A stretch of DNA of 32,000 nt from Staphylothermus hellenicus DSM 12710 (GTDB lineage: Archaea > Thermoproteota > Thermoprotei_A > Sulfolobales > Desulfurococcaceae): the NCBI RefSeq assembly GCF_000092465.1, contig NC_014205.1, positions 1,050,001-1,082,000 of the forward strand, in the 5' to 3' direction. The stretch's first letter is position 1. Every line of letters begins with the position of its first letter. Of this stretch, positions 1,792-10,012 are shown piece by piece. Below the pieces are notes generated by a model. That model had not been told where the DNA came from. It ran no database searches and saw nothing but the letters and a program-made list of their open reading frames with translations. A program made the position numbers and the translations under genes.

Positions 1792-1821
1792 AGTCTACAC
1801 CACATATTCATCCTTGATTAC

Positions 1822-2100
1822 TCATAGACAGTGAACTGCTCCCCGCTTATGTGGGGGAGCTTCTCCCGTTCCACCCGCCTTCACGGCTTAGGGTTTCATC
1901 TGGGAGTTCAGGGGGGTTCACAGCTCCCCCATCCCACGCCTCACATTAAGGCATGGGCTATATTGATTGCCGAGTTCAAATCTCTATACGGGAACATCCC
2001 AGAAAAGCTTTTAGTTTACTAGTGTATTTAAGATTTTCCCACCCACCTCCTCTTCTATATCCCCTCCCTCACGGGAAAGGTCTTACAAGCAACGAGAAGA
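1822..2100 (-). ncRNA. GC-rich structured RNA of unidentified class, either an independent ncRNA or a long structured leader of the downstream surface-protein gene
   Basis: This is a sharp GC-rich island in AT-rich DNA. Read on the minus strand it forms hairpin CCUUUCCC-GUGA-GGGAGGGG (plus coordinates 2061-2080; 8 bp with two G:U pairs and a GNRA-type loop). It also forms hairpin CCCAUGCCU-UAAUGUG-AGGCGUGGG (1933-1957; 9 bp with one G:U pair). The wobble pairs would be C:A mismatches on the plus strand, which assigns the strand. An AT-rich TATA-like box at ~2113-2135 lies upstream on the minus strand. The boundaries are approximate. Confidence 0.55.
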
Positions 2101-2192
2101 TAAAAATAGAGGGTTATATTTAATAATATTTATCCAGAAATTATGGAATTACTGAATTAAATAGACACTATATTTTTCGTGGTGAATGCCTA

Positions 2193-3083
2193 ATGAGGAT
2201 CCTTATAACAGGTCTTTTACCATATGATTCTGGAAAAACAGAGTTTACTTTAGGTTTAGGTGAGGCTTTAAAAGAATCTGGTTTCGATATAGGATATTTT
2301 AAACCATTAGCTGGGCATAATGGATGGTATCAATATGAGACTCTTATATATTCAAATAATACTGGGTTGCTTATAGGACATGATGCTTATATAGCTGCTG
2401 AAAAACTCGGCCTTATAAATTTATTACCCATTATTTCTCCACTGGATATTCTAACTTTTCCAATAGACCCGTTAGGCAAGGTTTATAGTAGCAGAAGCTA
2501 TATAGAACACATGTCATCAACAGCAAAAACAACTGTTTTAATGAGGTATACTCGAAGCCTTTTCCAAAACAATAAACTAGTAAATCAGCATTTATACGTA
2601 GTTTGTAAGGATACTGTTGAAAAACTTACCAATGATCTCCGAGAAACCCTTGAGAATCTAATTAATTCTCTAAAACAAGATAATACATTATTTATTGAAG
2701 CAAATACGTTATTTGTAGAAAAATTCCTTGAAAATCCACAAATATATAAAACAATCGATGAAAACCTTGTCTTCCTAGATAAGTTCAGTGTTTTACTAAT
2801 AGAAAGCTACAATGACGCTGCAGCGCCAACAATGGGTTCCCTGGATTCCGACTATGTATTCGTTGTTGCCCCTGGTAAAGCTCTACTTTATGAAGGAGAT
2901 AGATTTAAGAAGGCAGTATTGGTTTCTACTTATAGAGGCTATCCATGGGGTGTCAGGTTATCGACTGTTTTCGAAGTACTTGGAAAGCCTTTGAGAAAAT
3001 ATGATATTCCCTTGAAACTATACTCGGAAAAATATAGAGCTGTTTTCAATAATATCGCCGAGTTTATTACCGGGAGAATCTAA
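2193..3083 (+). CDS. P-loop NTPase of the dethiobiotin-synthase/CobQ-like fold (uncharacterised archaeal family)
   Basis: 296 aa. The N-terminus MRILITGLLPYDSGKTEFTLGLGEAL...GYFKPLAGHN resembles the DTBS-type pattern (xFxTGTDTxVGKT ... KPVxxG). It is the first gene of a co-directional 4-gene cluster. Confidence 0.6.
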   Translation: MRILITGLLPYDSGKTEFTLGLGEALKESGFDIGYFKPLAGHNGWYQYETLIYSNNTGLLIGHDAYIAAEKLGLINLLPIISPLDILTFPIDPLGKVYSSRSYIEHMSSTAKTTVLMRYTRSLFQNNKLVNQHLYVVCKDTVEKLTNDLRETLENLINSLKQDNTLFIEANTLFVEKFLENPQIYKTIDENLVFLDKFSVLLIESYNDAAAPTMGSLDSDYVFVVAPGKALLYEGDRFKKAVLVSTYRGYPWGVRLSTVFEVLGKPLRKYDIPLKLYSEKYRAVFNNIAEFITGRI

Positions 3084-5459: not shown

Positions 5460-5536
5460 GCGCGCCGCCCCCAAGTTTGACGCCCCCGATCTTTGGGGGT
5501 ATTGGATGACCTGGGGGGACTTGTCCCCCGCATCCT
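5460..5536 (+). ncRNA. GC-rich double-hairpin element, either a small RNA or the 5' UTR structure of the DUF59 gene
   Basis: GC-rich island about 30 nt upstream of the ATG at 5565. Hairpin A is CCCCC(5483-5487)/GGGGG(5495-5499), with an alternative 5' partner CCCCCAAG (5468-5475). Hairpin B (5504-5535) is GGAUG...GGGGGA-CUUG-UCCCCC...CAUCC. AT-rich TATA-like sequence lies at ~5420-5455. Confidence 0.35.
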
Positions 5537-7915: not shown

Positions 7916-8133
7916 TAATAAACAAATCTTTATAAGGATGATTAAACAAAACATATAAATGCCGAGCAGTCCACCGCCCACAAGAAATCATTATACATGA
8001 TACCACCACCGCCCGGTAATATGGTATGTTTAATAATTTTGCCATAACCGTACATGGTCTCTAACAAAACGGTATCTTACACATTCAATGACATTTATGC
8101 TGACCAGAATAATCTGGTATAACAATTAATACA

Positions 8134-8203
8134 CCTAACCCATGGCCTCCAGGGTTTTTCCCGCGGAGGCCGGGTAAAGGCCTCCGGGAGGCTATGGGTT
8201 AGG
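8134..8203. repeat. Extended GC-rich palindromic hairpin at the 3' end of the pfkB-like gene
   Basis: The outer arms are cctaacccatggcctcc (8134-8150) and ggaggctatgggttagg (8187-8203), giving 17 bp with one G:U pair if read on the plus strand. The inner hairpin is ggaggcc(8165-8171)-gggtaaa-ggcctcc(8179-8185). It is flanked by a second, nested inverted-repeat set (see findings). Confidence 0.6.
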
Positions 8204-9052
8204 CGGTGGTGGTTTAAGGGCGGTGGGCTGCGATGAGGCATTTCTTATTTCTAACCATTTAGTTGTTTCCCTTAAAGCATGGTGCATTGATTCTATTTCG
8301 TCATTGGTTATCATGTATTCTTTCGTGAAAACGCTTAGAAAATAATCGCCTGCTCCTGTTCGGTCTTGAACTGGTTTTTGCCTAGATCCAATGATCATGT
8401 ATTTATCTCTGAAAATTAGAATAGGTGGGTTTTCACTATTTGTTATTATAAATAATGTATTCTTACTTATTTTGCTAAGTTTTTCTGCTATATGATTTAC
8501 ATCTTTCGCCTGTGTTATATGAATAGCTTCATCTAAACCCATATGAACAATATTTGATAAATTCATTGCATCTAAGGAATCACTTGTTCTCTTAGTTACG
8601 ATTATATTTTGTTTGTTAACTATACGTGAAAATCCTTGAATATCGGTTGCAACTATTTTTGAAACCATCCTTATTTGTCTGAGTAACGATGTTGAGATTT
8701 CTCCAAGAACAGGGTTTACTATAGAGACATCTGCCTTCTCATTTTTAATATACATATTAATTTGTGGAGCCCGATCAACTACTATGATTGTTCTCTTAGG
8801 CCCTTCATAAATTAGTTTAAATATATTTGTATTTGTAGAGAACTGTTCCTGTGCAATATATCTTAATAGTTTGTTACTATAATATATGATTGGAGATATA
8901 ACTGTGTATATTTTTACATTGTATTTACTATCGGTAATAAAAGGTATGGATGAATAGTATACTCCTCCACCCAGTCTTTTATCAAGTAATTTTCTCTGAA
9001 CCACTATTATATCATATGTGAAGTTACCGTATAATCTAATATTATACTTCAT
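8192..9052 (-). CDS. PfkB/ribokinase-family carbohydrate or nucleoside kinase
   Basis: 286 aa. The C-terminal signature DRTGAGDYFLSVF matches DTxGAGDxF of the pfkB family, and an N-terminal GGG motif (RLGGGVYYS) is present. The last ~13 codons run into the GC-rich palindrome. Confidence 0.75.
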   Translation of the reverse strand: MKYNIRLYGNFTYDIIVVQRKLLDKRLGGGVYYSSIPFITDSKYNVKIYTVISPIIYYSNKLLRYIAQEQFSTNTNIFKLIYEGPKRTIIVVDRAPQINMYIKNEKADVSIVNPVLGEISTSLLRQIRMVSKIVATDIQGFSRIVNKQNIIVTKRTSDSLDAMNLSNIVHMGLDEAIHITQAKDVNHIAEKLSKISKNTLFIITNSENPPILIFRDKYMIIGSRQKPVQDRTGAGDYFLSVFTKEYMITNDEIESMHHALRETTKWLEIRNASSQPTALKPPPPNP

Positions 9053-9647: not shown

Positions 9648-10012
9648 GGCAGGTGAATACAAAAGACCTGCTCGGATGCGGGTGTGTGAATAAAGACCTA
9701 AGGGGTAGGTGTTGAACTGTGAGAATCTCAAGATGAAGGGTTTTCCTCCCCCTCCAAACACCTTCTACGGGGTGGTGAAGTCAGTGATCCACTCTGGGAA
9801 GGTGTGGATGAGGAGGGGGAGTGGGGTTACCCGGATCGGGGGCGAGACCTATGAAATGCTCCCCAATGAAAGGGGAGACGAGGTTGGTGTGCCCCAAAGC
9901 CTACATAGGCCAATCAAAGCCTATGTAGGCTAAACCCCAGTGCCTGAATATATGATGAGCTTTCAGCGAACTGATCAGCCGGTTGATCCTTCTTCATCCT
10001 TTCCGGTCAGAA
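9648..10012 (+). ncRNA. rnpB: Probable RNase P RNA
   Basis: GC-rich island. Segment 9769-9808 (GGGGUGGUGAAGUCAGUGAUCCACUCUGGGAAGGUGUGG) resembles the conserved P4 5'-strand region GGGGAGGAAAGUCCGGGCUCCAUAGGGCAGGGUGCCAGG of bacterial M1 RNA. Segment 9969-9988 (AACUGAUCAGCCGGUUGAUC) resembles the 3' conserved ACAGAACCCGGCUUAUC. GGCUAAACCCCAGUGCC resembles GGUAAACUCCACC. A TATA-like ttaaatatttt sits at 9620-9630 and an oligo-T run at 10015-10020. The ends are approximate. Confidence 0.55.

Follow-up and report, generated by a model that had tools for sequence, protein, structure and literature searches.

A gene-less TnpB-derived element with a predicted omega-RNA scaffold at the predicted start site of an envelope-protein gene in Staphylothermus hellenicus

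In a 32,000-nt stretch of the Staphylothermus hellenicus DSM 12710 chromosome (contig NC_014205.1, positions 1,050,001 to 1,082,000; called the window below and numbered from its first letter), an interval that stands out by its base composition lies between a minus-strand gene at 67-1791 and a plus-strand gene at 2193-3083. Its GC content reaches 0.525 (1801-2000) and 0.475 (1901-2100), compared with 0.28-0.35 in the surrounding sequence and 0.368 for the genome as a whole. The product of the minus-strand gene is an envelope protein, sequon-rich and membrane-anchored, with no significant Pfam match. An earlier note on this DNA had described the GC island, at 1822-2100, as a structured RNA of unidentified class. 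The island is indeed present, but what occupies it, window 1831-2099 on the minus strand, is dispersed and insertion-polymorphic, and is very probably a non-autonomous, gene-less derivative (a miniature inverted-repeat transposable element, MITE, or palindrome-associated transposable element, PATE) of an IS200/IS605-family insertion sequence (IS) of the TnpB-only (IS1341-type), Sulfolobales-type kind. Its GC-rich folded part is identified, from position and similarity, as the predicted scaffold of an omega RNA, or right-end element RNA (reRNA), an RNA that overlaps the tnpB 3' end where the element is full-length.

The limits of the element come from comparison of the S. hellenicus genome (a single contig of 1,580,347 bp) with that of a sister species, in which the flanks of the window copy directly abut (ctatttttat/tgtctatgag, with a slash at the junction), a precise empty site. 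Read on the minus strand, the insertion runs CTTCTCGTTGC...GGGGAGCAGTTCAC from 2099, its left end, down to 1831, its right end, and is 269 bp long; the region proposed earlier was right, and only its exact limits needed correction. BLAST of window 1800-2130 against its own genome yielded three additional copies, 85-86% identical and on the same strand, so that, in chromosomal coordinates, copies lie at 984100-984339, 1051831-1052099 (the window copy), 1104085-1104359 and 1367362-1367611. These short, dispersed copies (236-270 bp, n=4) are devoid of a transposase gene, and the three outside the window are in unrelated contexts, downstream of genes or convergent with genes. The sites of all four are empty in the sister species (4/4), in whose genome BLAST found no copy of the element. 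The four copies are ~14% divergent overall and therefore not recent. That all four are on the chromosome minus strand (1 in 8 by chance) agrees with the lagging-strand bias of IS200/IS605 elements, four being too few for this to be interpretable.

Every empty site has the point of insertion just 3' of a TTTAT (4/4). In the window this target, or transposon-adjacent motif (TAM), occupies 2100-2104 (minus strand), directly 5' of the left end; one of the S. hellenicus copies now reads TTTAA/TTAAT there. Target-site duplication is absent at all four sites, and so is a dinucleotide common to both junctions. The ends, CTTCTCGTT... and ...GCAGTTCAC, as read from the sequence, are no inverted repeats of one another, and subterminal hairpins take the place of terminal inverted repeats, the left at 2080-2061 and the right at 1860-1838, both on the minus strand. 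In RNA form the left-end hairpin reads CCUUUCCC-GUGA-GGGAGGGG and begins 19 nt from the left end; its DNA form, after the 19-nt linker, is CCTTTCCC-GTGA-GGGAGGGG. The right-end hairpin, GCUCCC...GGGAGC, is 7 nt inside the right end, and all four copies terminate in ...GCAGTTCAC, the last five nucleotides of which are the TTCAC right-end (transposon-encoded) motif (1831-1835, minus strand). The combination of a pentanucleotide site, no duplication, subterminal hairpins and a TTCAC end is, as far as junctions and ends can tell, the signature of IS200/IS605 single-strand movement by Y1 TnpA.

Relatives were sought with a covariance model (R1) built on the 175-nt core of the element. Matches are present in 17 of the 151 genomes of the order, often in several copies (19 in genome G085, many of them lying at the edges of contigs; other genomes have 9, 8, 7 and 6); there is no match in 18 other genomes of the host's own family, nor in the sister species. 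At six loci from four genomes (L033, L044, L034, L048, L031 and L035) the R1 match overlaps the last ~100 nt of a same-strand open reading frame (ORF), 384-389 aa long where complete, and extends ~60 nt beyond its stop. The position is that of an omega RNA or reRNA: at L033, for instance, the RNA match is at 1501-1661, the stop of the ORF at 1599 and the end of the IS at 1661. The ORFs of L033 and L034, the two that were scanned, are TnpB, with PF07282 (Cas12f1-like_TNB) at 89-91 bits and RuvC motifs visible; PF01385 (OrfB_IS605) scores 27-30 bits, just under its 30.5-bit cut-off. Within one genome, ~1.26-kb IS copies diverge exactly at the 3' end of the R1 match, ...GGGGTAGTTTAC, and full-length relatives terminate in ...GTAGTTTAC. 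At the left end of the full-length IS, a linker of ~17-19 nt is followed by a hairpin, GACCCCGTCC-GTAA-GGGCGGGG, then by TATAAAT, about 22 nt, and TTG GGA CGT TCC CTG (LGRSL...), with the TATAAAT about 29 nt upstream of the TTG start of tnpB (tnpB start GGGACGTTCCC). There is a difference in the terminal motifs: the full-length relatives (in G102, G147, G094 and G082) end in TTTAC with, it would appear, TTCAT upstream of their left ends, whereas the element here has TTCAC and TTTAT.

A pattern scan of genome contigs found one further copy only, in a metagenome-assembled genome (MAG), the covariance-model search being far more productive. The MAG copy and that of G034, from another family of the order, have common landmarks: a TTAAAT box, GGGATGTTCCC, TTAATG, GATGGGGGAGC and a terminal ...CTCAC/TTCAC. 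On the MAG contig (CAYXCK010000012.1, locus L022) a ~100-nt run of N at 1384-1482 is directly upstream of the family copy and has tcaaagcaaggtgcgtc on both of its sides, which suggests a tandem or duplicated left end that is unreadable.

The window element retains the parts of the full-length IS in the same order and then jumps into the C-terminal codons of TnpB, and so is taken to be an internal-deletion derivative. Behind the left-end hairpin comes TTAAATA (2025-2031, minus strand), an archaeal TATA-like box and putative remainder of the tnpB promoter, which is kept in all copies, in G034 and in the MAG copy. A spacer of ~24 nt leads from it to GGGATGTTCCC (1990-2000, minus strand), a remnant of the first tnpB codons that is invariant in the MITE copies. 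The deletion junction is at about 1989-1986. Past it, at 1941-1985 (minus strand), are the last tnpB codons, RDLNSAINIAHALM and a stop, including the RuvC-III Asp motif and non-coding now; tblastn with the L033 TnpB aligned RDLNAAINVARALTRGTGRGYVNTP with RDLNSAINIAHALM-stop-GVGWGSCEPP (14 of 25 identical, the in-frame stop included in the span). At the DNA level, identity between the element and the tnpB 3' ends of L031, L034 and L044 is 72-82%. About 4 first and about 15 last codons are thus all that is retained, and no sense ORF is left inside the element apart from an 18-codon remnant, which another copy has in interrupted form. The 63-aa plus-strand ORF at 1831-2022 runs antisense to the element, beginning with the reverse complement of the terminal CAC. 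Formation of the element would then have involved an internal deletion that removed nearly all of tnpB from a full-length IS and joined the left end, with its hairpin, the tnpB TATA box and the ~4 initial codons, to the ~15 final codons plus the right end. Its insertion 3' of TTTAT would have been by single-strand 'peel-and-paste', presumably with Y1 TnpA acting in trans.

A different mobilising enzyme has to be considered here, for the S. hellenicus genome has seven ORFs of tnpB type (truncated or interrupted in some cases) along with three serine-recombinase (resolvase-type) tnpA genes that adjoin tnpB, while Y1 TnpA was not found in it. An IS607-type MITE mobilised by the resident serine-recombinase TnpA, and not by Y1 TnpA, would also fit with the placing in IS607 of the TnpB elements and ~260-nt MITEs of S. 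marinus in the genome paper of that species (PMC2678158). Pertinent too is a different, 18-copy MITE family near the window, which derives from a resident TnpA(serine)+TnpB element. Serine recombination requires an identical crossover dinucleotide at both junctions and at the empty site. The window copy has junctions TTTAT/CT...AC/TG, that is AT/CT and AC/TG, against AT/TG in the empty TTTAT/TG, with no dinucleotide in common, and the same is true of the copy at 1104085-1104359. The strict 5-nt motif on the 5' side (4/4), the subterminal hairpins and the TTCAC end, which are like those of the IS605 elements of Sulfolobus/Saccharolobus islandicus, also speak against IS607. R1 is also unmatched at any resident tnpB 3' end; run with filters off on the seven resident tnpB loci above the Pfam cut-off, it scored at most 8 bits. 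IS607-type mobilisation is, on balance, very improbable, and the assignment to IS605 in preference to it rests on end anatomy and target motif since no tnpA adjoins the full-length copies examined.

Kinship to resident tnpB 3' ends was also sought by local alignment with eight candidate loci (one below the Pfam cut-off), which did no better than shuffles, and a resemblance by eye to one resident TnpB C-terminus was dropped. Two resident tnpB genes, at chromosomal 207115-208464 and 1189845-1191032, have a common C-terminus, ...PQSLHRQIKAY(A/V)G and a stop, followed by ACCCC.

That the minus strand encodes a folded RNA domain, as had been proposed from G:U wobbles whose plus-strand counterparts are C:A mismatches, is borne out. 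The pairs are as described (U2077:G2064 and U2078:G2063 in the hairpin 2080-2061; U1953:G1937 and U1948:G1942 in 1957-1933), and covariation in 33 family members supports the structure. In their alignment (A3), 89.9% of the cells in the seven R1 helices are paired, versus 40-52% with the 3' partners slid 1-3 columns along, though it tells somewhat against these pairing counts that the alignment was fitted to R1 and so inflates them, the margin still being large. Double-sided changes occur in 32 of the 38 pairs, the covariation score is 0.457 versus 0.07-0.12 for slid partners, and none of 500 shuffles reaches the observed values. As single-sequence folding only modestly beats shuffles (z-score -2.5 for the minus strand and -2.1 for the plus strand), the real structural support is comparative; by that measure, the structure of the element's predicted RNA is real.

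All seven helices are on the minus strand. Helix 1 pairs 2001-1997 with 1993-1989. Helix 2 (feature 1933-1957; 10 bp, loop AAUGU) pairs 1957-1948 with 1942-1933, is 94.6% paired in the 33 sequences and has double-sided changes in 7 of its 10 pairs. The corresponding figures for helix 3, GGGGG/CCCCU (1910-1930; 1930-1926 with 1914-1910), are 89.1% and 4 of 5. Helices 4-6 form a compound stem at 1863-1906, CUCCC/GGGAG around ACCC..GCC-GUGAA-GGC..GGGU, in which 1906-1902 pairs with 1867-1863 around 1894-1885 with 1879-1873 (84-95% paired; 10 of 12 pairs with double-sided changes). The last scaffold stem, helix 7, is the right-end subterminal hairpin (1838-1860; 1860-1855 with 1843-1838), 92.3% paired and with such changes in all 6 pairs; on checking by hand, clear compensatory flips were seen in it among S. 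hellenicus, G034 and the MAG. Two mutually exclusive hairpins that use GCUCCCCC had been suggested. Both are possible in the sequence, yet a switch between them finds no support in relatives: only GCUCCC/GGGAGC is kept in these, and the alternative (GGGAG 1867-1863 with CUCCC 1859-1855) is not conserved, its pairing, 46.7%, being within the 33-61% of slid controls for the 33 sequences.

An independent cellular RNA, e.g. signal recognition particle (SRP) RNA, RNase P RNA or a multi-hairpin H/ACA RNA, or else a dedicated riboregulatory leader of the envelope gene, might be read into a GC-rich sequence in an AT-rich genome that folds on the minus strand with covariation and abuts a gene with no terminator between. 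Such an RNA is scarcely compatible with a precise empty site in the sister species, which does have the envelope gene, with four dispersed copies, or with so patchy a range (0/18 in the own family, 17/151 in the order), and is the least credible of the explanations considered. SRP RNA and RNase P RNA are encoded elsewhere, at chromosomal 1510496-1510790 (126 bits) and 1443580-1443921 (162 bits), respectively, in keeping with the earlier judgement that the island is neither; the stretch 9648-10012, then thought the better RNase P candidate, is a tnpB 3'-end/omega-RNA-type fragment. No Rfam family matches in the whole window at gathering scores, and in 1700-2250 only noise (E of 2 or more) was seen at E up to 10. 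Like the switch hairpin, the ACA that follows the stem is unconserved: a putative H/ACA hairpin, GGGGGAGC...GCUCCCCC-ACA, was rejected as the strand of its 3' pocket is only 2 nt and other copies do not have the ACA. A false lead is thereby removed, the GC island being no new archaeal RNA class.

With the gene-less IS200/IS605 derivative as the preferred reading, a route to guide-RNA production can be outlined. Transcription is predicted to start near 2002-2000, ~25-29 nt past the element's TATA box, and the RNA would contain the scaffold, end it at TTCAC and read into the flank, 1830 to ~1811, as guide. The predicted guide segment, UGUCUAUGAGUAAUCAAGGA (1811-1830, minus strand), placed by analogy with established omega-RNA architecture, is also 5' untranslated sequence of the downstream gene. 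Such a guide would match the empty site next to TTTAT, as in the 'homing' logic of TnpB (PMC10055086). Identity between the copies in S. hellenicus is uneven, with 91% in the scaffold, 81% in the tnpB remnant, 73% in promoter and spacer and 51% in the left end, a pattern suggestive of selection having once acted on the RNA and right-end portion.

Several observations weigh against this reading. Two of the four copies have a damaged left-end hairpin, lacking 28-35 nt that include its 3' arm. A search for Y1 TnpA (PF01797) gave no match in S. hellenicus, which bears on present mobility and not on origin; nor was a full-length partner of the element found in that genome, whose nearest TnpB shares no more than 34-38% identity with the cognate type. 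No tnpA adjoins any full-length copy of the R1 type among those examined, although Y1 TnpA is present in other genomes in which the family occurs, G102, G147 and G085 (G094 has a stop-interrupted match only). The omega-RNA promoter, transcript and guide, for their part, are predictions from sequence features such as the TATA box and the missing terminator. With neither Y1 TnpA nor cognate TnpB in the genome, the four copies are probably stranded orphans.

The window copy has a particular relationship to the gene downstream. In the sister species' empty site a TTAAATA precedes the insertion point by 17 nt, and the ATG follows it by 39 nt; the equal box in the window, at 2117-2123 (minus strand), is likely the native TATA box of gene 67-1791, and the element would accordingly seem to have landed at about the predicted transcription start. 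Because the insertion is between this box and the ATG, mRNA of the gene probably crosses the element. Transcripts from the native box (2123-2117) would cross all of it, and those from the element's own box, which faces the gene, would have a ~170-nt scaffold leader; the mRNA, then, probably carries the scaffold as its 5' leader. The absence of oligo-T between 1830 and the ATG at 1791 was correctly noted earlier. The long structured leader proposed on that account does not stand as a dedicated one, though it may well survive as a by-product of insertion between native TATA box and ATG.

Domestication, which is compatible with a transposon origin, would give such a by-product a function, either as promoter and leader of the downstream gene, or as omega RNA used in trans by a distant resident TnpB. 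The spacing just described, the orientation of the internal TATA box and the lack of a terminator are in its favor, as is the scaffold's high identity between copies relative to the 51-81% elsewhere. The other three copies, though, are downstream of, or convergent with, genes; no resident TnpB has a similar RNA, judging from R1 at the tnpB 3' ends; and scaffold conservation may equally be a legacy of the donor lineage, from selection there for transposition or homing. A domesticated element is unlikely. A shade less likely still is that a distant resident TnpB loads guides supplied in trans or that the window copy now works for the envelope gene as its promoter and structured leader. If true, a transposon guide-RNA scaffold would control, or be processed from, a host mRNA.

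The nearest described system is that of the IS605 elements of S. islandicus REY15A, which insert at TTTAA, have a conserved TTCAC right end and a guide directly after UUCAC (PMC11043419), the TAM of SisTnpB1 being TTTAA (10.1101/2023.03.06.531077). In common with these elements (SisTnpB1/TnpB7 and reRNA) are a T-rich pentanucleotide site, the TTCAC end, a scaffold that overlaps the tnpB 3' end, and a hyperthermophilic archaeal host of the same order in the GTDB classification. The difference, the likeness being to the published description, is that the element here is without tnpB and has only 4+15 of its codons.

Gene-less forms are also known. PATEs, or IS200-IS605 MITEs, occur, for example, in Haloquadratum walsbyi and Geobacillus stearothermophilus (PMC3119063; PMC10055086), and PATEs often encode omega RNAs (PMC10055086). 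They too are short, gene-less and multicopy, with ends of IS1341-type tnpB elements, subterminal hairpins, no target duplication and often an omega RNA in need of TnpB in trans. The present element is of another sequence family and host lineage, and its genome has no cognate TnpB or Y1 TnpA that could be found. Archaeal sense overlapping transcripts (sotRNAs) are structured sense RNAs at the 3' end of IS1341-type tnpB (PMC4615843), and circular omega-RNA isoforms are known in archaea (PMC12558985). Sense orientation, structure and position at the tnpB 3' end are shared with the present case, in which, however, the RNA gene stands apart from tnpB and would be transcribed directly from what was once the tnpB promoter. 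Closest in host are the ~260-nt MITEs of S. marinus, a sister species, which have inverted-repeat flanks and resemble upstream regions of elements assigned to IS607 (PMC2678158). Though similar in size and akin to ends of TnpB-only elements, they are another family, the present element being found in the sister-species genome neither with R1 nor by BLAST. Gene-less omega-RNA elements, then, are already known; this family is new in that it is outside Rfam and unmentioned in the S. hellenicus genome paper (PMC3236042).

What is added is an unannotated omega-RNA family that spans several families of the order and comes with a usable covariance model, a TAM (TTTAT) and an end motif (TTCAC). An omega-RNA element at the predicted start site of an envelope gene, in a genome without its transposase and nuclease partners, is also a small, clean system for orphan guide-RNA expression or reuse.

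Two further GC-rich islands are of related origin. A GC-rich insert about 520-750 nt before the window (chromosomal 1049251-1049485; about 351-585 in locus L053) belongs to a second MITE family, with ~18 further matches. It matches the last ~175-185 nt of resident tnpB genes at 270162-270336, 1319557-1319739 and 1541983-1542116, and also 1317758-1317783, upstream of a serine-recombinase tnpA (left end). On account of these matches to ends of a TnpA(serine)+TnpB element, the second family is regarded as a resident IS607-type derivative. R1 has no match in the insert, and the two families are distinct by BLAST, so that a MITE of TnpB origin lies on each side of the envelope-gene module, the two being unrelated. 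The three GC-rich islands checked around the window are all TnpB right-end/omega-RNA sequences or gene-less derivatives of them, which gives a general rule for this AT-rich hyperthermophile. Two other GC-rich structured stretches in the window, at 7971-8226 and 5460-5536, are single-copy in the genome by BLAST and hence outside the MITE families seen. The third of the islands, at window 9662-9938 on the plus strand, matches at 92% identity the final ~215 nt of one resident tnpB together with its right end (208253-208469), and weaker copies of this fragment are at 943188, 1364600, 1190987 and 4493.

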